Made by a program: the position numbers and the translations under genes | Shown: positions 13,376 through 37,934 of the stretch, in pieces | Layout: each line of letters opens with the position of its first letter | How positions within the stretch are numbered: position 1 is the first letter of the stretch | The notes under the pieces: generated by a model | Database searches by the model: none | What the model saw: the letters and a program-made list of their open reading frames with translations, nothing else | What the model was told of the DNA's origin: nothing | Source of the DNA: Escherichia coli | GTDB taxonomy: Bacteria; Pseudomonadota; Gammaproteobacteria; Enterobacterales; Enterobacteriaceae | DNA length: 64,000 bases | Assembly (NCBI RefSeq): GCF_050320075.1 | Contig: NZ_CP190021.1 | Strand: one strand, 5' to 3'

Positions 13376-13789
13376 ATGTTTTTTATTGAGAATGAAGGTC
13401 AGGCTGTCGCCGGAACGGATTACTGGCAGTCTGTACAGGCGCAGGCCGGATATGTCTACCTCAGCTGGAATGCCGGCGCAGCCAGGCTGCTTGTCCCGGA
13501 TGCGGCAAAACATTTACTCAGGGAGATGCGGGGGGCTGAGTACGTCATCATCAGTAAGGGAGCACTGCATGGCCGCGATGCGCTGGAACTGGTATTTGAA
13601 GACGGCAGCGATGCGCCGTTTGTGATCCACATGCTGAGTGAGCAGTGCGATCGCCTGCTCCCCGAAAACAACCAGGGAGGGGGTTTTGTTGTCACCGTCT
13701 GGACGCGTGGAGGTAACCAGCTCCGTTATCCGGGAAAGTACCGTGTTGTGGAAAACCTGCCCGACGTTTCCCCGTGGAGTGAACACTGA
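13376..13789 (+). CDS. Hypothetical protein translationally coupled to the downstream recombinase
   Basis: ATG at 13376 with AGGAG RBS (ORF track starts earlier at 13337); stop TGA overlaps TGATATG start of the recombinase. Confidence 0.6.
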   Translation: MFFIENEGQAVAGTDYWQSVQAQAGYVYLSWNAGAARLLVPDAAKHLLREMRGAEYVIISKGALHGRDALELVFEDGSDAPFVIHMLSEQCDRLLPENNQGGGFVVTVWTRGGNQLRYPGKYRVVENLPDVSPWSEH

Positions 13790-13790
13790 T

Positions 13791-14576
13791 ATGCAGCACC
13801 TGCCGGCACCGATCCACCATGCCCGGGATGCTGCTCAGCTTCCTGTTGCCATCGATTATCCGGCAGCGCTGGCACTCCGCCAGATGTCGATGGTTCATGA
13901 TGAACTGCCAAAATACCTGCTGGCCCCTGAAGTGAGCGCCCTGCTCCATTACGTGCCGGATCTGCGCCGCAAAATGCTGCTGGCCACACTGTGGAACACC
14001 GGTGCGCGCATTAATGAAGCACTGGCGCTGACGCGGGGGGATTTTTCGCTTGCGCCTCCGTATCCGTTTGTGCAGTTGGCCACTCTGAAGCAGCGGACCG
14101 AAAAAGCCGCCAGGACGGCAGGAAGAATGCCCGCCGGTCAGCAGACTCACCGGCTGGTTCCGCTCTCTGACGCCTGGTACGTCAGCCAGCTGCAGACGAT
14201 GGTGGCCACACTGAAAATCCCCATGGAACGGCGTAATAAACGAACAGGCAGGACAGAGAAAGCGCGGATCTGGGAAGTGACGGACAGAACGGTCAGGACC
14301 TGGATTGGGGAGGCGGTTGCCGCCGCTGCCGCTGATGGAGTGACGTTCTCTGTCCCGGTCACGCCACATACGTTCCGCCATTCCTATGCGATGCACATGC
14401 TGTATGCCGGTATACCGCTGAAGGTCCTGCAGAGTCTGATGGGGCATAAGTCCATCAGCTCAACGGAGGTCTACACGAAGGTCTTTGCGCTGGATGTCGC
14501 GGCGCGTCATCGTGTGCAGTTCGCCATGCCGGAAGCCGATGCGGTAGCGCTGATAAAACAACTTGAGAGGCGTTAA
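13791..14576 (+). CDS. Tyrosine site-specific recombinase (XerD/ResD-like, probable multimer resolvase)
   Basis: C-terminal HTFRHSYAMHMLYAG...LMGHKSISSTEVYTKV motifs (catalytic R-H-R-Y region); probable start MQHLPAP at 13791 within track ORF 13638-14576. Confidence 0.8.
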   Translation: MQHLPAPIHHARDAAQLPVAIDYPAALALRQMSMVHDELPKYLLAPEVSALLHYVPDLRRKMLLATLWNTGARINEALALTRGDFSLAPPYPFVQLATLKQRTEKAARTAGRMPAGQQTHRLVPLSDAWYVSQLQTMVATLKIPMERRNKRTGRTEKARIWEVTDRTVRTWIGEAVAAAAADGVTFSVPVTPHTFRHSYAMHMLYAGIPLKVLQSLMGHKSISSTEVYTKVFALDVAARHRVQFAMPEADAVALIKQLERR

Positions 14577-14823: not shown

Positions 14824-15150
14824 CTAATAATGATATTTCAGCATGATAGCAGCAATAAAATAGATTGCAGCTATCATGCTGTACACATACGGCCTAGCGC
14901 TCTGTTTATGTTATGCTATCTGCAATCTTGCGGCAATCTTGCTTCATCTGTCGATGCGATTCTGAATGAGGTTTCTTTTATTGTTAACGTGACACAAGTA
15001 TTCGGCTGTCAATTCCAGCACTCTGCTAAGTAGCAAGATTATTTATTGTTGCAATCTTGCTGCAAGCTGTTATCTTGTTCTGGAAGAGTTACTCTACCTA
15101 ATCTCAATCTGGTTTATATTGATGTTTGCTGCAAGATAGCAGCAAGTAAA
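14824..15150. repeat. Partition-site/operator iterons upstream of parA (TGCAATCTTGC and GCATGATAGCAGCAA units)
   Basis: At least six copies of the GCAAGATTGCA-type motif in both orientations, read from sequence. Confidence 0.7.
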
Positions 15151-15159
15151 GGGGGCTAA

Positions 15160-15792
15160 ATGGCCTGGATAGTTGGTTTTATTTCTCAGAAAGGTGGTGT
15201 GGGCAAAAGCACTAAAGCGAGAGCGTTAGCGCGTGAAGCATCCGCCTGTGGTATCAAAACAAAATTAGCTGATCTCGACTTGGAACAGGCAACGAGTGCT
15301 GAGTGGCATCGTAGACGTCTGTCAGCTGGTTTGTCACCGGTTGCTTCCGTTGAAGTGTTTTCAACAGCAAAGCAGGCGATAGAATCTGCCGGCGATTTTG
15401 ACCTTCTGATTCTTGATGGCCCTGCTCGTGCAAGTAAAGGTACTTCAGAAATTGCTAAGGTCGCCGACCTTATCGTCCAGCCAACGGGAGCCTCCCTTGA
15501 CGATCTTGTCCCGGCAATTAAAGTTTTCAACGCGTTGGTAAAAGAAGGTATACCACGTTCAAAACTGGTCTTCGCTTTAAGCCGGGTAGGTACCGAAGCG
15601 GAAGAGCTGGATGCTCGTGCATATATCAGTGAAGCAGGTTATGAAACTTTATCTGGATGCCTTTTTGAGAAGCCAGCATACAGAAAAGCGATGAATTCAG
15701 GACTCGCTGTGACAGAAACACGTTATAAAGGTTTAAACGAGAGAGCTGATGAACTTATCCAGGCACTCATCGATAAGATTGGAGAAGAGTAA
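15160..15792 (+). CDS. parA: ParA-family Walker ATPase (small type Ib partition ATPase)
   Basis: 210-aa ORF with deviant Walker A KGGVGKST. Confidence 0.9.
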   Translation: MAWIVGFISQKGGVGKSTKARALAREASACGIKTKLADLDLEQATSAEWHRRRLSAGLSPVASVEVFSTAKQAIESAGDFDLLILDGPARASKGTSEIAKVADLIVQPTGASLDDLVPAIKVFNALVKEGIPRSKLVFALSRVGTEAEELDARAYISEAGYETLSGCLFEKPAYRKAMNSGLAVTETRYKGLNERADELIQALIDKIGEE

Positions 15793-21974: not shown

Positions 21975-22315
21975 AAGGACGTCGCCGCCGGCTCCGCTTT
22001 ACCCGGCCATGCAGGGCATGGCCTTGTGGTTTTTCAGTTATGTGGCCGCCGTGTCGTGTGCGGGCTGTGCCGTGCCTCCATCTTAGCCGGGCTGGCAGGG
22101 ATGCAAGGGTACGCTTCGCCGCTGCGGTCACCCGGTCCCTCCTTCCCGTCTGCCGTGATTTTCCGGTCGTTCACCCGCTCAGATTTCGCGGTCTCACCCT
22201 CCAACTCCCGCCAGCCGTGTGCGTCAGGCTGCGGCTTCCCTTGCGCCCTGTGCATCCCCACCTTATCGCCCGGCTTTTATGGAGGCACGGCACCGCCCGG
22301 TGTCGCGGAATATGT
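21975..22315. repeat. Leading-region repeat family A, copy 1 (~340 bp), candidate ssDNA promoter (Frpo/ssi-like)
   Basis: Near-identical to 28922-29265; ends immediately upstream of the KlcA-like gene. Confidence 0.65.
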
Positions 22316-22335
22316 GAACAACGGAGGAAAACATC

Positions 22336-23620: not shown

Positions 23621-24125
23621 CTTCGGCTCCCGGCTGCCTGGCGGCATCCGGTCGTCAGGCCCGACTCCGACAGGCAGCTGCTGGCGCACCCGCCAGTCTC
23701 CGCCGAACCCGCTGGCGCGGTTTCGGGCTGCCGCTACGGTCCGATGCGTGAAAACCCGGCTTGCAGCGACCGTTCCGGTCGCGCCGCCCCTGTCGCGCCG
23801 TGACCTGCGCTCCCTGCACACCTGACGGTGTGTGAGGAAACTGCGCCTGATGGCGCAGCAGTCTTCCCTCCTGCCACCACCCCTGCGGCCTGTTTCCCGC
23901 TGTGGACTTTCCGGGGGGCAGACGTAACCCCCTCCCGTTCCATCTGTCCAGGGTGAGATGCACCGGCCACAAAATTTTTAGCCATGAACCCGGCTAAAAA
24001 TTTTGCGTCCGCCCCCGGACAGCTGTCCCGTGAGGCGGTAAACGGGCCCCCATCGGAAAGGTCCACTGCGGGGAGAAACCCCTGTGAAGTGGACGGCAGG
24101 AGGAGCTTTCGCTCCTCTGAAGGGG
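23621..24125. repeat. Leading-region repeat family B, copy 1 (~505 bp), candidate ssDNA promoter upstream of ssb
   Basis: Highly similar to 29964-30465 and partly to 33013-33345; contains a 14-bp perfect hairpin CAAAATTTTTAGCC-N8-GGCTAAAAATTTTG. Confidence 0.65.
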
Positions 24126-28921: not shown

Positions 28922-29265
28922 AAGGAAGTCGCCGGCGGCTCCGCTTTTACCCGGCCATGCGGGGCATGGCCTTGTGGGGTTTCAGCTCTGTGGCCTCAGC
29001 GTCGTGTGCGGGCTGTGCCGTGCCTCCATCTTAGCCGGGCTGGCAGGGATGCAAGGGTACGCTTCGCCGCTGCGGTCACCCGGTCCCTCCTTCCCGTCTG
29101 CCGTGATTTTCCGGTCGTTCGTCCGCTCAGGTTTCGCGGCCTCACCCTGCAACTCCCGTCAGCCGTGTGCGTCAGGCTGCGGCTTCCCTTGCGCCCCTGC
29201 ATCCCCGCCTTATCGCCCGGCTTTTATGGAGGCACGGCACCGCCCGGTGTCGCAGAACATGTGAC
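28922..29265. repeat. Leading-region repeat family A, copy 2, candidate ssDNA promoter upstream of ardA
   Basis: Near-identical to 21975-22315. Confidence 0.65.
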
Positions 29266-29281
29266 TATGGAGGATTCGGGA

Positions 29282-29963: not shown

Positions 29964-30465
29964 CTTCGGCTCCCGGCTGCCTGGCGGCATCCGGTCGTCA
30001 GGCCCGACTCCGACAGGCAGCTGCTGGCGCACCCGCCAGTCTCCGCCGAACCCGCTGGCGCGGTTTCGGGCTGCCGCTACGGTCCGATGTCTGAAAAACC
30101 AGGCTTGCAGCGACCGTTCCGGTCGCGCCGCCCCTGTCGCGCCGGAAACGGCGCTCCCTGCACACCTGACGGTGTGTAAGGCCACTGCGCCTGATGGCGC
30201 AGTCAACCCTTCCGCCGCCACCCCTGCGGCCTGTTTCCCGCTGTGGACTTTCCGGGGGCTGGAGTAACCACATCCCGTTTCAGCAGTCCAGGGGAAGATA
30301 TACCGTCCACAAAATTTTTAGCCATAAACCCGGCAAAAAATTTTGCGTCCGCCCCCGGACAGCTGCCCCGTGACGTGGTGACGGACGCCCCATCGGAAAG
30401 GTCCACTGCGGGGAGAAACCCCGAAGAAGTGGACGGCAGAAGGGGCTTTCGCCCCTCCGGGGAGC
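29964..30465. repeat. Leading-region repeat family B, copy 2
   Basis: Aligned by eye to copy 1 over ~500 bp. Confidence 0.65.
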
Positions 30466-33012: not shown

Positions 33013-33345
33013 AGTCGCGCCGTATGCGGCGCTCCCTGCACACCTTACGGTGTGTAAGGCCACTGCGCCTGATGGCGCAGCTGTCTCTGCCTGTCTGCCG
33101 CCGCACTGCGGCCTGTTCTCCGCAGACGGACTTTCCGGGGGTACATACATGACCACATCCCGTTTCAGTCGTCCAGGGGGGAGATGTACCAGCCACAAAA
33201 CTTTTTGCCGCAGGCGTCAAAAACTTTTGCGTCTGCCCCCGGACAACTGCCCCGTGACGTGGTGAGCGTCCCCCGTCGGAAAGGTCCACTGCGGGGAAAT
33301 CCCCGAAGACCCGGACGGCAGAAGGAGCTTCGCTCCTCCGGGAAA
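33013..33345. repeat. Leading-region repeat family B, copy 3 (partial, 3' two-thirds)
   Basis: Aligns to 23792-24125 of copy 1, including a degenerate version of the hairpin. Confidence 0.6.
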
Positions 33346-33389: not shown

Positions 33390-34238
33390 ATGAATCAGAC
33401 TTTACCCACTGCTGACCTGAATACTGCCGGCACGACAGATGTTATTCCGTCTGTGGCTATCGACCGCATCATCGCGCAGCGTAACGAAGGTATTGCACTG
33501 TTCATGCAGGCGATGGAATGCCTGGCGACAGCGCGCAAGATTCTGCTCGATGCGTCAGGTGATATTTTTCTTTACGGGTTTGAAGACTGCGTGACTGATT
33601 CCGTTCGTCGCATAGATAAACCGGAAGAAGCGAAAAGGAATATCACCCGTCTTGCCGACCGGAAAATCTGGGACCGCCTGATGACAGATACGGGCATGTA
33701 CACCTTCATGAGTTCATGCCAGCGTGATGAGTGGAACAGCCAGCTGATGAGCGACACCTGTCCTGAAATCACCCTGGACAATGTACTGGCAACATTCCGC
33801 CATCTGAATGCCTGCAAGATGCAGACATTTGAACAGGGACTGATTGATGTCTACCGGAAATTGTCATGGGATTACAGAACCAATAATCCCTGCCGTCTGG
33901 GTAAGAAAATCATTATTGAAAACCTGCTGTACCGCTGGAGTAACGGGCGTGTGACGCTGGACTGCAGCGGACGGGAGGCACTGGATGACCTGGTACGTCC
34001 GTTTTATCTGCTGGAGGGGCGCAACGTTCCTGACTTCAGGAACAGTATCGGGGCGCAGTATGGTGAATTTCTCGGGAACGGCGACAATGTCGGTAAGCTG
34101 TTAGAAGGGGAATATTTTACGGTGCGTGGCTACCAGAAAGGGACCGTACACATTGTCTTTAAGCGTTCTGACCTTGTTGAAAAACTGAATGATATTATTG
34201 CACGGCATTATCCAGGTGCATTGCCGCCACGAGTCTGA
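33390..34238 (+). CDS. Hypothetical protein, last leading-region gene before oriT
   Basis: ATG at 33390 with GAGGAG RBS (track ORF 33387-34238 starts at a GTG one codon earlier). Confidence 0.6.
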   Translation: MNQTLPTADLNTAGTTDVIPSVAIDRIIAQRNEGIALFMQAMECLATARKILLDASGDIFLYGFEDCVTDSVRRIDKPEEAKRNITRLADRKIWDRLMTDTGMYTFMSSCQRDEWNSQLMSDTCPEITLDNVLATFRHLNACKMQTFEQGLIDVYRKLSWDYRTNNPCRLGKKIIIENLLYRWSNGRVTLDCSGREALDDLVRPFYLLEGRNVPDFRNSIGAQYGEFLGNGDNVGKLLEGEYFTVRGYQKGTVHIVFKRSDLVEKLNDIIARHYPGALPPRV

Positions 34239-34243
34239 TTAAA

Positions 34244-34282
34244 CAGAAAAGCCCTGGTATTTATGCCGGGGCTTTTTTTTCT
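34244..34282 (+). terminator. Rho-independent terminator
   Basis: AAGCCCTGG-loop-CCGGGGCTT stem followed by a T8 run. Confidence 0.7.
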
Positions 34283-34323
34283 GTAATCATCATAATCTCA
34301 GAACACGATGTGACATTGTCACA

Positions 34324-34665
34324 TCAATTGTTGTTCATATCGATGCCATCTTTCCTGCCTGAATCTGTCTTTTTAGGTGCTGTTTTAGAGGAAGAACGGC
34401 GGGATGGTTTTTTCGATTCTGCTTCCCGAATAATGTCACGAAGTGCCTTCTCTCCTACTTCATACCCTGCATTTTTGAGCGTGTCACGAACATCTGCCAG
34501 TGTATAACCCTTTGTCCTTACCAGGACAATAATGTCATCACGAATGGCATCAAGAAAATCACGCAATGTTTTCCGTTGAGCGGTGAGATCTGGCAATTCC
34601 GATAAAGCAGCTTTTGCCAGCTGGATGTCATCATCTGAGTAAAATTTTTTAGAAGCCATTGGCAC
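34324..34665 (-). CDS. Hypothetical protein with basic C-terminal tail, divergent from nikA next to oriT
   Basis: 113-aa ORF ending ...KKPSRRSSSKTAPKKTDSGRK... Confidence 0.5.
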   Translation of the reverse strand: MPMASKKFYSDDDIQLAKAALSELPDLTAQRKTLRDFLDAIRDDIIVLVRTKGYTLADVRDTLKNAGYEVGEKALRDIIREAESKKPSRRSSSKTAPKKTDSGRKDGIDMNNN

Positions 34666-34718
34666 TTTCTCTCCGTTTCATGTTGAAGTCTGATTTTATC
34701 ATCAAAAACTGACTCCTG

Positions 34719-34846
34719 GCAGGGCTGCGCCCTGCCTCTGCCGTCTGCATAAGACTATGATGCACAAAAATAACAGGCTATAATGGCCTGAAAAACGGGA
34801 CAGGATGTGCAATTGTATAACCGCGCACGCGCGATTATACAATTGC
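34719..34846. other. oriT: oriT region: 8-bp perfect inverted repeat (GGCAGGGC-TGC-GCCCTGCC, 34719-34737) and 18-bp imperfect inverted repeat (34809-34846) upstream of nikA
   Basis: Inverted repeats read from sequence; position upstream of nikAB matches IncI1 oriT organisation. Confidence 0.65.
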
Positions 34847-34891
34847 CTCCTGGTCAGGGCTTCGCCCCGACACCCCAGTAAGGAGCTGACC

Positions 34892-35224
34892 GTGAGTGAT
34901 AAACGTCAAAGAAGTGGTAGTGAAAGACGGCAAAAGACGATCCTGAGAGCGGTCCGGTTCTCACCGGATGAGGATGAAACTATCTGTAAGAATGCTGAAG
35001 ATTCCGGACTTACTGTATCTGCTTACATCCGAAATGCAGCACTGAATAAGCGAATTAACTCCCGTACAGATGATGCTTTTCTGAAGGAGTTAATGAGACT
35101 GGGAAGGATGCAGAAGCATCTGTTTGTTCAGGGAAAAAGAACCGGTGACAAGGAATACGCAGAAGTGCTTGTTGCCATAACCGAACTTACAAATACATTG
35201 CGTAAACAGTTAATGGAAGGTTGA
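34892..35224 (+). CDS. nikA: oriT-binding relaxosome protein NikA
   Basis: 110-aa product from GTG 34892 with AGGAG RBS; the track ORF 34805-35224 is an upstream extension. Confidence 0.85.
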   Translation: MSDKRQRSGSERRQKTILRAVRFSPDEDETICKNAEDSGLTVSAYIRNAALNKRINSRTDDAFLKELMRLGRMQKHLFVQGKRTGDKEYAEVLVAITELTNTLRKQLMEG

Positions 35225-35234
35225 GGATTCTCCG

Positions 35235-37934
35235 GTGAATGCAGTCATTCCGAAAAAGAGAAGGGACGGCAAGTCTTCGTTCGAAGACCTGGTATCCTAC
35301 GTCTCTGTCCGGGATGACATGACCGATGAGGAACTGGATTTATCTTCTTCTTCGCAGGCTGAACAACCGCACCGAAGCCGTTTCAGTCGCCTTGTTGATT
35401 ATGCGACACGTCTTCGAAATGAGTCATTCGTGGCGCTGGTTGATGTCATGAAGGACGGCTGCGAATGGGTCAACTTTTATGGTGTCACCTGCTTTCATAA
35501 CTGTACTTCTCTTGAAACTGCCGCTGCAGATATGGAGTACATTGCCCGGCAGGCACACTATGCAAAAGATGACACTGACCCTGTTTTTCACTACATCCTT
35601 TCCTGGCAGTCACATGAAAGCCCGCGTCCGGAACAGATTTATGACAGTGTACGTCATACGCTGAAATCACTCGGCCTTGCCGACCATCAGTATGTCTCTG
35701 CCGTGCATACTGATACAGATAATCTGCACGTCCATGTGGCTGTTAACCGGGTACACCCTGAAACGGGTTATCTGAACCGGTTATCATGGAGTCAGGAAAA
35801 ACTCAGTCGTGCCTGCCGTGAGCTTGAACTGAAGCATGGTTTTGCTCCGGATAACGGTTGCTGGGTCCATGCGCCGGGAAATCGTATCGTTCGCAAAACT
35901 GCCGTTGAACGTGATCGCCAGAACGCCTGGACACGCGGAAAAAAACAAACTTTTCGTGAGTATGTTGCGCAGACAGCGGTCGCTGGTTTACGCAGTGAAC
36001 CTGTACATGACTGGTTATCCCTGCATCGTCGTCTTGCGGAAGATGGTCTGTACCTGTCTCAGATGGACGGAAAATTTCTGGTGATGGATGGCTGGGATCG
36101 CAACAGGGAAGGTGTACAGCTTGACTCGTTTGGTCCCTCCTGGTGTGCAGAAAAACTCATGAAAAAAATGGGTGACTACACGCCAGTGCCAAAAGACATT
36201 TTCAGCCAGGTGGAAGCACCAGGACGCTATAATCCGGACTTCATTGCAGCTGATGTTCGCCCGGAAAAAATCGCTGAAACAGAAAGTCTGCAGCAGTATG
36301 CCTGTCGTCATCTTGGAGAACGTCTGCCGGAAATGGCACGGGAAGGACGGCTGGAAAACTGCCTGGCTATTCACCGCACACTGGCTGAAGCGGGATTATG
36401 GATGCGTGTTCAGCATGGTCACCTGGTTATCTGTGACGGTTATGATCATAACCAGACTCCCGTTCGTGCTGACAGCGTATGGTCACTGCTGACGCTCGAC
36501 AATGTGAATCAACTCGATGGTGGCTGGCAGCCTGTACCAACAGATATTTTCCGCCAGGTTACGCCAACAGAACGCTTCCGTGGTCGTCGTATGGAGAGCT
36601 GTCCTGCGACCGATAAAGAATGGCACCGTATGCGTACAGGTACGGGGCCGCAGGGGGCTATCAAACGCGAACTGTTTTCTGACAAAGAAAGTCTGTGGGG
36701 ATACAGCATCAGCCATTGTAGCCCTCAGATTGAAGAAATGATCACACAGGGTGAGTTTACCTGGCAGCGTTGTCATGAGTTGTTTGCACAACAGGGACTG
36801 ATGCTACAGAAACAACATCACGGGCTTGTTGTCGTTGATGCTTTTAATCATGAGCAAACGCCGGTGAAAGCCAGCAGCATTCATCCTGATCTGACACTGG
36901 GGCGTGCGGAGCCACAGGCCGGACCTTTTGTGAGTGCTCCAGCAGATTTGTTTGACAGGGTGCAACCTGAAAATCGCTATAACCCGGAGCTGGCTGTCAG
37001 TGACAGGTACGGGGTCAGCAGTAAACGTGACCCAATGCTGCGCCGGCAGCGACGTGAAGCCAGGGCTGAGGCCCGTGCTGACCTGCGTGCCCGCTATCTG
37101 GCATGGCGTGAACAATGGCGTAAACCGGATCTGCGTTATGGGGAACGTTGTCGGGAAATTCATCAGGCATGCCGTCTGCGGAAGTCACACATTCGTGCGC
37201 AGTACGATGATCCGGCATTACGTAAGCTGCATTATCACATTGCAGAAGTTCAGCGAATGCAGGCATTGATCAGGCTGAAAGAAGACATCAGGGATGAGCG
37301 ACAGAAACTTATTGCTGACGGGAAATGGTATCCACCCTCTTACCGTCAGTGGGTCGAAATTCAGGCTGCTCAGGGAGACAGGGCTGCTGTATCGCAGTTG
37401 AGAGGCTGGGATTATCGCGATCGCCGTAAAGACAAGTCACGCACAACGACGACAGACCGCTGTGTCGTGCTTTGTGAACCGGGCGGAACGCCGGTATACG
37501 GTAATACCGGTGATCTCGAGGCCCGTCTGCAGAAGAACGGGAGTGTTCGTTTCCGTGACCGTCGGACGGGAGAGTTTGTCTGTACGGATTATGGTGACAG
37601 AGTTGTTTTCCGTAATCACCATGACCGCAATGCGCTGGCAGATAAACTGGATTTGATTGCACCGGTATTATTCGGGCGTGATCCACGCATGGGGTTTGAA
37701 CCAGAAGGAAACGACAAACAATTTAACCAGGTCTTTGCTGAAATGGTTGCCTGGCATAATGTGACAGGCCGTACCGGTCACGAAGACTACAGGATTACGC
37801 GACCGGACGTGGATCATCACCGTGAAGGAAGTGAACGCTACTACCGCGATTATATCGCGGCGAACAGCAACGATGACGCATCACTGCCTCCGCCGGAGCA
37901 GGATAAACGCTGGGAACCGCCTTCTCCAGGTTAA
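35235..37934 (+). CDS. nikB: Relaxase NikB (MOBP family)
   Basis: 899-aa ORF immediately after nikA; histidine triad region HTDTDNLHVHVAVNRVH. Confidence 0.9.
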   Translation: MNAVIPKKRRDGKSSFEDLVSYVSVRDDMTDEELDLSSSSQAEQPHRSRFSRLVDYATRLRNESFVALVDVMKDGCEWVNFYGVTCFHNCTSLETAAADMEYIARQAHYAKDDTDPVFHYILSWQSHESPRPEQIYDSVRHTLKSLGLADHQYVSAVHTDTDNLHVHVAVNRVHPETGYLNRLSWSQEKLSRACRELELKHGFAPDNGCWVHAPGNRIVRKTAVERDRQNAWTRGKKQTFREYVAQTAVAGLRSEPVHDWLSLHRRLAEDGLYLSQMDGKFLVMDGWDRNREGVQLDSFGPSWCAEKLMKKMGDYTPVPKDIFSQVEAPGRYNPDFIAADVRPEKIAETESLQQYACRHLGERLPEMAREGRLENCLAIHRTLAEAGLWMRVQHGHLVICDGYDHNQTPVRADSVWSLLTLDNVNQLDGGWQPVPTDIFRQVTPTERFRGRRMESCPATDKEWHRMRTGTGPQGAIKRELFSDKESLWGYSISHCSPQIEEMITQGEFTWQRCHELFAQQGLMLQKQHHGLVVVDAFNHEQTPVKASSIHPDLTLGRAEPQAGPFVSAPADLFDRVQPENRYNPELAVSDRYGVSSKRDPMLRRQRREARAEARADLRARYLAWREQWRKPDLRYGERCREIHQACRLRKSHIRAQYDDPALRKLHYHIAEVQRMQALIRLKEDIRDERQKLIADGKWYPPSYRQWVEIQAAQGDRAAVSQLRGWDYRDRRKDKSRTTTTDRCVVLCEPGGTPVYGNTGDLEARLQKNGSVRFRDRRTGEFVCTDYGDRVVFRNHHDRNALADKLDLIAPVLFGRDPRMGFEPEGNDKQFNQVFAEMVAWHNVTGRTGHEDYRITRPDVDHHREGSERYYRDYIAANSNDDASLPPPEQDKRWEPPSPG

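Follow-up and report, generated by a model that had tools for sequence, protein, structure and literature searches.

A putative R64-like origin of transfer in which the protein-binding repeat and the N-terminus of NikA appear to have been exchanged together

Plasmids of the I-complex rank among the main carriers of resistance genes, those for ESBLs included. Their origin of transfer (oriT) governs what can be moved by these plasmids and by small plasmids with a copied oriT. The oriT of R64 contains a 17-bp and an 8-bp set of repeats, both immediately upstream of nikA, within a minimal oriT of 85 bp (PMC3817090), and the minimal extents described range from 85 to 106 bp (PMC3817090, PMC6112013). 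In IncK2/Z and IncB/O plasmids the 17-bp repeat differs where NikA differs (PMC3817090). The nick consensus of MOBP systems is YATCCTG/Y, with the slash marking the nick (PMC3772185), and the small plasmid pEC156 is mobilized by R64 (PMC4743918).

We analyzed a stretch of DNA of 64,000 nucleotides (hereafter the window), in which the interval upstream of nikA very probably serves as oriT for a conjugative plasmid of the I-complex (R64-like, MOBP/MPF_I). Sites of this kind are well known. Judged from its alignments, we read this oriT as a minority variant that has exchanged its protein-binding repeat together with the DNA-binding end of NikA. Among the plasmids in PLSDB, 140 have the window type and 1,437 the R64 type; the kind of element is already known, and the allele is uncommon. 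The basic picture of IncI transfer is unchanged by these findings.

Gene context and nick region

Positions 17911-42844 of the window are collinear with R64 over about 25 kb at 96.4% identity, the flanks of oriT reaching about 99-100%, and pFORC44_1 (IncI-gamma/K1 replicon, MOBP, MPF_I) is 100% identical to the window. Window and R64 have the gene order yggA - oriT - nikA - nikB - trbC in common, with the nikA-nikB operon adjoining oriT and reading away from the nick. The nikA gene (34892-35224, plus strand) starts at GTG 34892, behind the Shine-Dalgarno sequence AAGGAG (34880-34885), and encodes a 110-amino-acid RHH relaxosome accessory protein with a variant N-terminus. This protein scores 77.9 bits against the Pfam NikA-like profile PF21983 (cut-off 27) and 117 bits against the NCBIfam MobA profile NF041264 (cut-off 80), and it matches PDB 2BA3, NikA(1-51), with an E value of 8e-17. 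Membership of the RP4 TraJ family was rejected, the TraJ equivalog model NF010451 giving 33.9 bits against a cut-off of 134; NikA is TraJ-like in its working only. The adjacent nikB (35235-37934, plus strand) encodes a MOBP relaxase of 899 amino acids, which matches Pfam Relaxase PF03432 and NCBIfam TraI_MobP_relax (410.8 bits, cut-off 250) and whose translation shows Tyr22 and the motif H-T-D-T-D-N-L-H-V-H. NikB is 99% identical to R64 NikB, the gene differing at 24 of 2700 nt. The homologue of yggA (34324-34659, minus strand, 111 amino acids) is the first gene of the leading region and diverges from nikA. Its product is 98% identical to the R64 protein and had no match among the Pfam and NCBIfam profiles, and its RefSeq label, [quoted passage not shown], is wrong.

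An earlier, sequence-only reading of this DNA had proposed an oriT upstream of nikA from two inverted repeats, both of which were recovered by a repeat search of the window (an 18-nt pair complementary at 17/18 positions and a perfect 8-nt pair). Alignment with R64 bears out the proposed location, in that the nick region is identical and the 18-nt repeat homologous. The repeats do lie upstream of nikA much as described, 46-174 bp from the GTG at 34892, but the start coordinate had been given one position off and should be 34718. The nick region falls inside the interval that had been proposed, on the minus strand and between the two repeats. An Rfam scan of 34000-35400 gave no family match for oriT, with sub-threshold terminator-like matches only, at 34147-34341, and full-text literature searches with the repeat and hairpin-2 sequences yielded no oriT papers, only vector sequences with the pBR322-type motif.

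The 13-nt nick region (34796-34808, minus strand), of which positions 34808-34797 read 5'-ACATCCTG/TCCC-3', is identical to that of R64 and contains the MOBP core ATCCTG. Its element GGGACAGGATGTG is unchanged in nearly all of 106 IncI-type oriT copies, while the neighboring repeat is hypervariable. Assigned by homology, the nick would fall between 34801 and 34800, leaving 8 nt (34808-34801) on the nicked strand between the predicted nick and the nick-proximal arm of the long repeat (repeat A, 34809-34826). For R64 itself we take the position of the nick, the binding of NikA to repeat A only and the role of the 8-bp hairpin in termination to be as Furuya and Komano described them in 1991, 1995, 1997 and 2000. 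The transferred strand is predicted to begin with T34800 at its 5' end and to run towards lower coordinates. In R64 the leading-region genes ardA, psiA, psiB and ssb are annotated upstream of nikA on the plus strand; their template is thus the minus strand, as would be expected of a transferred strand.

By homology to R64 and RP4, transfer would begin with the binding of the RHH protein NikA to repeat A. NikB, placed on the nick region by NikA, would cut the minus strand after ACATCCTG (34801/34800) and remain joined to the 5' end, and the minus strand would then move 5' to 3' towards lower coordinates, so that yggA would enter first, followed by the ardA/psiB/ssb leading region, with nikAB last. 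The nick-distal arm of the long repeat (repeat B, 34829-34846) and an imperfect 8-bp hairpin at 34853-34871 would complete a minimal oriT of about 90 bp; in R64, repeat B and the 8-bp hairpin reportedly serve termination and recircularization. The first three of these steps are modeled on R64 and RP4, and the architecture and the co-variation of its parts come from the present analysis.

The long repeat and the NikA N-terminus

The long inverted repeat has 18-nt arms at 34809-34826 and 34829-34846 (GCAATTGTATAACCGCGC / GCGCGATTATACAATTGC), complementary at 17/18 positions and separated by a 2-nt spacer. It is the homologue of the 17-bp repeat of R64, in agreement with the earlier suggestion that it carries the NikA site. 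The 64-kb window holds only two inverted repeats of 18 nt with at most one mismatch and a loop of 0-10 nt, and 20 dinucleotide-preserving shuffles held none. Across the repeat variants, 85.6% of cells were paired as against 20-41% in slid controls; the repeats were registered by maximal complementarity, which biases the count towards pairing, but the slid controls are still far lower. Compensatory double changes were found in 10 of the 16 pairs, and the observed covariation was reached by 0/500 shuffles. The asymmetry between the arms is also conserved, with repeat B pairing with repeat A except at position 13, which is unpaired in 17 of 20 variants. Within repeat A, the predicted NikA-binding site, columns G7, T8, C13, C14 and G15 do not vary between types, and A12 hardly does. 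The specificity bases of the window, TGT-ATAA-CCGCGC, depart from the R64 NikA-binding sequence at arm positions 10-11 and 16-18, differences that we interpret as another specificity allele and not another kind of site.

The differences from R64 are concentrated in a mosaic patch of 176 bp with sharp boundaries (34818-34993), which covers the inner half of both arms, the Shine-Dalgarno region and nikA codons 1-34. There are 2 differences in 34526-34817, about 50 in the patch and 0 in 34994-35130. Codons 1-34 of nikA hold 34 nucleotide differences, 8 codons being changed only synonymously, and codons 35-110 hold 1. At the protein level NikA and its R64 counterpart are 88% identical, with each of the 13 substitutions located in residues 4-34, a segment made up of the N-terminal arm, beta-strand and helix 1. 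As we read this pattern, the inner bases of the repeat and NikA residues 4-34 were replaced together by a recombinant patch. A search for the donor of the patch found no sampled NikA type nearer to the window N-terminus than that of R64 (27/40 identical residues, with 23/40 for the pMS1718-3 type, both counts read by eye off the NikA alignment).

The same association extends to other plasmids. Across about 100 oriT copies the inner repeat tetranucleotide follows the NikA N-terminal type almost one-to-one, and at least eight repeat types are each paired with their own NikA N-terminal type. The one exception, contig L029, combines a type-C repeat with a type-D NikA and belongs to a low-coverage assembly.

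Because the inner repeat and NikA residues 4-34 appear to have been replaced together, the window oriT would be expected to need its own NikA and not that of R64. The NikA and repeat of the window may be incompatible with those of R64, though some cross-recognition may persist, as the outer repeat, the invariant ACCG and the nick region are shared. With NikA-binding bases and a NikA N-terminus unlike those of R64, poor mobilization by R64 would not argue against oriT function; the valid helper for the window oriT would be a cognate plasmid (pFORC44_1 type), not R64 alone, and the choice of helper counts in mobilization assays generally. NikA specificity would move as a compact cassette, formed by the inner repeat with NikA residues 4-34, within a backbone otherwise identical to that of R64. 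Typing oriT by relaxase only would overlook such differences in specificity, and orphan-oriT plasmids may depend on particular NikA alleles.

Two short hairpins

Hairpin 2 (34853-34871; GTCAGGGC-TTC-GCCCCGAC), located between the long repeat and nikA, corresponds to the canonical 8-bp repeat in the minimal oriT of R64. This imperfect hairpin had been overlooked in the sequence-only reading, and the perfect repeat at 34718-34736, which had been put forward there, is not the canonical one. On the plus strand, 7/8 positions of hairpin 2 pair; the remaining one is a G.T pair on the minus strand, where the loop reads GAA. It is identical in R64, 100% identical in pWEC-2, and falls inside the functional 106-bp oriT of pCTX-M3. 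Small orphan plasmids have in common with the window only 34792-34876.

On the transferred strand the conserved 23-mer of hairpin 2 (34852-34874, GGTCAGGGCTTCGCCCCGACACC) folds into a GC stem capped by a GAA triloop. The same 23-mer also adjoins ColE1-type (MbeA) and MobQ-type oriTs. Its position on the nicked strand is the same, 5'-motif - specific repeat - nick-3', in three relaxase families, namely NikB/MOBP (IncI and IncM plasmids), ColE1 MbeA and MobQ, the MobQ set including contigs of unexamined source and host.

We think it unlikely, though worth stating, that the 23-nt motif is a relaxase-independent cis module of transfer origins with hairpin 1 as its leading-side paralogue. If this were true, the 23-mer would be read by something common to many systems, for example a factor of the host, a function in coupling or priming, or a structure intrinsic to the DNA and used at termination, and I-complex plasmids would have duplicated the 23-nt module onto the leading end. 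This cross-family motif is the sole part of the analysis that could raise a new question.

Hairpin 1 (34718-34736; GGCAGGGC-TGC-GCCCTGCC) is a direct-repeat paralogue of hairpin 2 that lies outside the minimal oriT, about 65-83 nt past the nick on the leading side and 156-174 bp upstream of nikA. Its 8-nt arms (34718-34725 / 34729-34736) are perfect and enclose a 3-nt loop. Perfect 8-nt inverted repeats with a 3-6 nt loop number 29 in the window, with a mean of 5.3 per shuffle; because such repeats are not rare, hairpin 1 is not significant alone, and its reality rests on its conservation. In 43 distinct contexts, all from large plasmids, its distance from hairpin 2 is fixed at 132-136 nt, and in pWEC-2 it is 84% conserved between neighboring segments that are 36-52% identical. 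The R64 copy is imperfect, with a 1-nt deletion (GGCA-GGC), and pFSIS1609569-3 offers one case of a compensatory stem variant (GGCAGGAC-TCA-GTCCTGCC). Hairpin 1 was seen in large I-complex contexts only; it is absent from all small orphan oriTs, and ColE1/MOBQ contexts gave 0 cases. No hairpin-1-like copy was found beyond the nick in ColE1-type and MobQ-type oriTs, so that the duplication would be specific to I-complex plasmids. We regard hairpin 1 as a conserved accessory palindrome that most likely either regulates the divergent yggA/nikA promoters or gives the transferred strand a stable hairpin at its leading end.

The first of these roles, which we put forward tentatively, would make hairpin 1 a double-stranded operator between the yggA and nikAB promoters, at which a dimeric regulator, possibly YggA, represses the relaxosome genes. 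The left arm of the palindrome overlaps the -35 of a predicted yggA sigma-70 promoter (34693-34722, minus strand; -35 CTGCCA at 34722-34717, an 18-nt spacer and an extended -10 TGaTAAAAT at 34698-34693), though this promoter is a consensus match only (9/12 positions in a consensus scan, TG present). In the other direction, hairpin 1 sits about 45-60 bp upstream of a perfect TATAAT (34779-34784), a candidate nikAB promoter -10. This hexamer is part of a conserved non-coding block (34739-34786, plus strand) whose identity is 100% in R64 and the IncK2/Z plasmids and still 81% in pWEC-2, where neighboring segments reach 36-52%. Its -35 is weak, and a consensus promoter scan for nikA did not call the TATAAT, no -35 reaching 4/6.

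In pCTX-M3 the yggA homologue orf35 represses nikA, nikB and traH 23-80-fold (PMC6112013), but that plasmid has no clear equivalent of the palindrome. YggA is 97-98% conserved where NikA N-termini diverge, which matches a near-invariant palindrome; with both nearly invariant, however, there is no co-variation to use. The AF2 model of YggA is a 4-helix bundle (pLDDT 68.8) whose best weak fold matches are DNA-binding domains (StbA, Fur and PadR), the R388 StbA domain being the closest (E 1.1), but these matches are not significant (E of at least 1.1), and YggA is without a family match. Regulation of the StbA type was considered separately and rejected: the 9-bp repeat of that type, TTGCATCAT, occurs 20 times in the window where 22 are expected, with a single copy near oriT.

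The second role, possible if somewhat unlikely in our estimation, is that hairpin 1 works single-stranded on the minus strand and, with hairpin 2, protects or organizes the ends of the T-strand. Its distance of about 65-83 nt from the 5' end mirrors that of hairpin 2 from the 3' end (about 52-71 nt), the spacing between the two is fixed, and hairpin 1 copies hairpin 2 as a direct repeat together with its flanks, both reading CAGGGCTTCGCCC in pWEC-2. A G-N-A triloop closed by C-G defines an unusually stable class of DNA hairpin, and on the minus strand both loops are of this kind (GCA in hairpin 1, GAA in hairpin 2), although the loops differ in other lineages (TAA, AAA, TGA). Beyond the one compensatory stem change, 4/5 one-sided stem changes preserve G.T pairing on the minus strand, a proportion that is not significant with so few cases. 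The minus-strand fold includes both hairpins (z = -7.35), but the plus strand folds almost equally well (z = -6.84). Moreover, the right half of hairpin 2 is kept as sequence and not as pairing (pBR322-type GGTCATGGCTGCGCCCCGAC), and a leading-end hairpin has no known function.

We consider it very unlikely that the two canonical R64 sets are represented by the 18-bp repeat and the one at 34718-34736, both within the minimal NikA/NikB recognition region. The description of R64 oriT as having 17-bp and 8-bp sets (PMC3817090) and the perfect, conserved nature of the repeat would favor this, but the R64 copy bears the deletion, and the repeat lies 156-174 bp from nikA where an 85-bp oriT lies immediately upstream of that gene. 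It is also missing from all small orphan oriTs and from the 106-bp functional oriT of pCTX-M3, and an R64-identical imperfect 8-bp repeat is found at 34853-34871, exactly the canonical location. Finally, it is extremely improbable that the repeats are nikA transcription signals only (terminator, attenuator or autoregulatory operator) with the true oriT elsewhere on the plasmid: the long repeat and hairpin 2 do lie in the likely 5' untranslated region of nikA and RHH proteins are often repressors, and autoregulation may occur alongside oriT function, but the nick region is identical to that of the experimentally defined R64 oriT, the same module alone renders small plasmids mobilizable by R64, as shown for pEC156 (PMC4743918), and neither hairpin is followed by a T-run.

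Comparison with known transfer origins

The window oriT, taken as that of an I-complex plasmid, is closest to those of R64 and ColIb-P9 (IncI1). The nick region, hairpin 2 and the leading-side block are identical, and the long repeats agree in position, roughly in length and in the arm position of the mismatch. The inner arm bases differ (TGT-ATAA-CCGCGC in the window, TGT-AATA-CCGTC in R64), as does the geometry of the repeat, with 18-nt arms and a 2-nt spacer in the window and 17-nt arms and a 6-nt spacer in R64. The 13 NikA positions in residues 4-34 and hairpin 1, perfect in the window and shortened by 1 nt in R64, complete the differences at this locus. The replicon of the window is IncI-gamma/K1 and not IncI1, yet R621a (IncI-gamma) has the R64-type NikA and repeat.

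The IncK2/Z and IncB/O oriTs (pO26-CRL125, pSH284-2, pMS1718-3) have the same architecture, and the pMS1718-3 type has the inner ATAACCGCGC and the NikA beta-strand residues AVRFSP in common with the window. They differ in having other outer arms (TAATCG or GGGAAT), NikA proteins of 58-68% identity and a more divergent relaxase, whereas the window retains the R64 outer arm and an R64-type NikB.

The likeness to RP4 (IncP, TraJ-TraI) is more distant and lies in the nick core ATCCTG and in the relaxase, which in both is of the MOBP type with an N-terminal Tyr (Tyr22 in the window) and a histidine triad. RP4 likewise has a repeat that stops 8 nt 5' of its nick, and its RHH accessory protein occupies the nick-proximal arm, as predicted for NikA. 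The repeats of the two systems are without sequence similarity, and the mating-pair type is MPF_I here and MPF_T in RP4.

The functional 106-bp oriT of pCTX-M3 (IncM) resembles that of the window in its nick region GGGACAAGATGTG, an 18-nt imperfect repeat with ACCGCC, the element GGTCAGGGCAAGCCCCGACACC, nikA and the divergent yggA homologue (orf35). Its NikA, however, is about 30% identical, there is no clear equivalent of hairpin 1, and nikAB is fused to the tra operon.

The small orphan-oriT or NikA-only plasmids (pEC156, the 1.5-kb Col(MG828) plasmids and the pCERC7/NTP16 family) have the nick region, repeat and hairpin 2 and are without the relaxase, hairpin 1 and the leading-side block. 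Their repeat types mimic given helper NikA types, or the plasmid carries a NikA of its own.

An R64-type oriT upstream of nikA

The region upstream of nikA is an R64-type origin of transfer, a known kind of element, present here in an uncommon specificity allele. R64, an IncI1 plasmid, is collinear with the window over 17911-42844 at 96.4% identity, with the gene order ssb, psiB, psiA, ardA (all plus strand), a small minus-strand gene, nikA, nikB, trbC, trbB and trbA. The E. coli plasmid pFORC44_1, typed as IncI-gamma/K1 replicon, MOBP relaxase and MPF_I, is 100% identical over 241 bp around the finding. In the window, nikA (110 aa) starts with GTG at 34892, just after an AAGGAG Shine-Dalgarno sequence; next comes nikB (35235-37934, 899 aa), with trbC converging from 40262. 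NikB shares 99% identity with its R64 counterpart, scores 410.8 bits against the TraI/MobA(P) relaxase model (cut-off 250), and shows Tyr22 and an HTDTDNLHVH motif in its translation. NikA scores 77.9 bits against Pfam NikA-like (cut-off 27) and 117 bits against NCBIfam MobA (cut-off 80), and matches the solved NikA ribbon-helix-helix (RHH) domain 2BA3 (E 8e-17). The sequence-only reading had located the oriT correctly.

The 18-nt imperfect repeat which that reading reported is present, with 17/18 complementary arms at 34809-34826 (repeat A, nick-proximal) and 34829-34846 (repeat B, nick-distal) and a 2-nt spacer. It is far beyond chance: the window holds two 18-nt inverted repeats with at most one mismatch, versus none in 20 dinucleotide-preserving shuffles. 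We read the oriT anatomy from an alignment of the intergenic region with R64 and eight other plasmids of the R64-like I-complex, in which R64 carries a 17-bp repeat at the corresponding place, bearing out the earlier interpretation. The nick region (34796-34808) is GGGACAGGATGTG on the plus strand and 5'-ACATCCTG/TCCC on the minus strand (slash, nick), and contains the MOBP core ATCCTG, 8 nt past the end of the repeat arm; the MOBP nick consensus is YATCCTG/Y (PMC3772185). The strand of this core and its distance from the arm predict a nick on the minus strand, which the sequence-only reading had left unassigned, between 34801 and 34800. T34800 is the predicted 5' end, leading towards lower coordinates; the minus strand would be transferred and, as expected, would act as template for ardA, psiB and ssb, the leading genes on the plus strand, and nikAB would enter the recipient last. 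Beyond repeat B, hairpin 2 (34853-34871, GTCAGGGC-TTC-GCCCCGAC) is identical in R64 and is followed by the Shine-Dalgarno sequence and nikA.

Furuya and Komano, in work of 1991, 1995, 1997 and 2000, reportedly located the nick in R64 at a distance of 8 bp from the 17-bp repeat, and are said to have found that NikA binds repeat A only and that both repeat sets act in termination. Secondary sources concur on the main points of this layout, describing 'nick region and repeat A' as the core needed for transfer (PMC4743918) and a minimal oriT of 17-bp and 8-bp imperfect repeat sets directly upstream of nikA (PMC3817090).

Several other features of the window deserve mention. In RefSeq the minus-strand yggA homologue (34324-34659), divergent from nikA, goes under the name 'molybdopterin-guanine dinucleotide biosynthesis protein MobC', which it shares with thousands of cluster members. 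This looks like a propagated misnomer: neither Pfam nor NCBIfam yields a match for the gene, and the homologue in IncM, orf35, represses transfer genes. Between the end of yggA and a DUF4942 gene lies a perfect 8-bp hairpin with a T-rich tail (GATGTGAC-ATT-GTCACATC, 34307-34325), which resembles a terminator, potentially one shared by the two convergent genes. Secondary blastn matches to R64 revealed dispersed leading-region repeats of about 350 bp (21975-22328 / 28922-29274) and about 500 bp (23621-24117 / 29964-30457 / 33014-33342), similar to the repeated Frpo/ssi-type sequences described in the leading region of IncI plasmids. A second 18-nt inverted repeat (17/18; CAGCATGATAGCAGCAAT / ATTGCAGCTATCATGCTG, 14839-14856 / 14864-14881), the only one in the window besides that of the oriT, occupies the gap between a 312-aa ORF (13638-14576), within a stretch matching the R64 site-specific integrase region, which in R64 precedes a ParA-family gene, and a 210-aa ORF (15160-15792); it may function as a res, par or operator site.

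A mosaic patch across the repeat and nikA

Differences from R64 number 2 in 34526-34817, about 50 in the 176 bp of 34818-34993, and 0 in 34994-35130, so that the patch is sharply bounded by flanks about 99-100% identical to R64. It spans exactly the inner repeat and the NikA N-terminal arm, beta-strand and helix 1: codons 1-34 of nikA hold 34 nucleotide differences (13 amino-acid changes and 8 synonymous-only codons) and codons 35-110 hold one, and divergence is 0.9% in nikB and 1.2% in yggA. The patch is a recombinant import, not local drift. R621a, the IncI-gamma prototype, has the R64 allele, and the window allele is therefore not tied to replicon type. The window-type repeat occurs in 140 PLSDB plasmids (Escherichia 85, Salmonella 47, Shigella 5, Klebsiella 3), 138 of them typed conjugative, versus 1,437 for the R64 type; none of the listed records annotates a feature beneath the match. 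Joint divergence of NikA and the 17-bp repeat within the I-complex had been noted before (PMC3817090); a description of this particular allele was not found in the literature searched. A mobilisation test would call for a cognate helper plasmid, rather than the generic IncI1 helper proposed from the sequence alone.

A scan with the 23-mer of hairpin 2 (34852-34874) returned 120 metagenome stretches, which with plasmid loci gave 106 IncI-type oriT copies. Among these the nick region is essentially invariant, and at least eight sequence types of the long repeat can be told apart, all of them still inverted repeats. For 20 distinct variants, 85.6% of cells were paired versus 20-41% with slid partners, both sides had changed in 10/16 pairs, and 0/500 shuffles reached the observed covariation; the construct registration was picked for maximal pairing, a bias in these counts, though the margin is large.

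Columns G7, T8, C13, C14 and G15 of repeat A are invariant and A12 nearly so; repeat B keeps the partners of G7 and G15 only, and the invariant ACCG is kept by repeat A, not repeat B. Arm position 13, mismatched in the window's long repeat (34809-34846), is unpaired in 17 of the 20 variants. This asymmetry fits a model in which repeat A holds a protein site and selection on repeat B is for complementarity alone. The repeat A tetranucleotide between TGT and CCG tracks the NikA N-terminal type almost one-to-one: AATA accompanies the beta-strand TVVRTLRF (R64 type), ATAA accompanies TILRAVRF (window type) or, with another outer arm, NVLIAVRF (pMS1718-3 type), CGGA accompanies IVKFTARF (IncK2/Z, pSH284-2 type), and TATA accompanies AISRPVRL (pCERC7 family). 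The C-terminal 45 residues of NikA are conserved across types. The sole exception, a 4.4-kb contig with coverage of about 1.9x (L029), joins a pMS1718-3-type repeat to a pSH284-2-type NikA, and reflects either natural hybridisation or chimeric assembly.

The leading-side hairpin

The perfect 8-bp repeat of the sequence-only reading (hairpin 1; arms 34718-34725 / 34729-34736, 3-nt loop) exists, but it is not the canonical R64 one, being imperfect in R64 (GGCA-GGC) and outside borrowed and functional oriTs. It lies 64-82 nt beyond the predicted nick on the leading side; small plasmids borrowing the IncI oriT share 34792-34876 only, and the functional 106-bp oriT of pCTX-M3 begins at the nick region. 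Perfect 8-nt hairpins are not rare (29 in the window versus 5.3 per shuffle), so its reality must rest on conservation. Large plasmids supply 43 distinct contexts in which it is found, each with a spacing of 132-136 nt to hairpin 2; none of the ColE1- or MobQ-type oriTs in the contexts scanned has it alongside. Hairpin 1 is a direct-repeat copy of hairpin 2 plus its left flank, and one compensatory variant, GGCAGGAC/GTCCTGCC, occurs among the aligned I-complex plasmids. Conservation in pWEC-2 is 81-84% for hairpin 1 and the next 48-nt block, which holds a perfect TATAAT (34779-34784), against 36-52% identity in the segments beside them. Hairpin 1 is a real element, though not the canonical repeat.

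Two readings of hairpin 1 remain. It may be an operator, as its palindrome overlaps the -35 of the predicted yggA promoter and the pCTX-M3 yggA homologue represses nikA, nikB and traH 23-80-fold (PMC6112013); the YggA structure model is helical, although its fold matches are not significant. It may instead be a hairpin on the transferred strand, where the loops of hairpins 1 and 2 are G-N-A triloops closed by C-G and the mismatch of hairpin 2 becomes a G.T pair. Folding is far better than in shuffles on both strands (z = -7.35 minus, -6.84 plus), and computation does not separate the two readings.

The hairpin-2 motif beside other relaxase families

The exact 23-mer of hairpin 2, GGTCAGGGCTTCGCCCCGACACC, adjoins oriTs of the NikB/MOBP, ColE1 MbeA and MobQ families (the window and loci L046, L061, L071, L043, L080 and L138). 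The searchable literature yielded nothing on this cross-family occurrence, which older papers may describe. Because its right half is conserved as sequence, not as pairing, a sequence-specific reader of the motif would be as likely as a structural role. On tiny plasmids resembling Col(MG828), about 1.5 kb long (L012, L036 and the 1.6-kb contigs L078 and L079), the motif occurs twice in opposite orientations, one copy by a ColE1-type nick region and the other by an IncI-type orphan oriT; each such plasmid thus appears to have two oriTs.

In ColE1-type oriTs the 23-mer comes after TAAGCCAGTATACACTCCGCTATCGCTACGTGACTG, and an MbeC-like gene and the gene for an MbeA relaxase (NF047848, 866 bits) lie downstream; in MobQ-type oriTs it comes after GCGCACTTA and a short repeat, and a MobQ relaxase (NF041496, 246.7 bits) is encoded 14-50 nt downstream. 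The IncM plasmid pCTX-M3 has a form one base shorter, and the pBR322 bom site, in printed vector sequences, has the form GGTCATGGCTGCGCCCCGACACC. On the nicked strand, all three families show the order motif, specific repeat, nick, the specific repeat always standing between the 23-mer and the nick.
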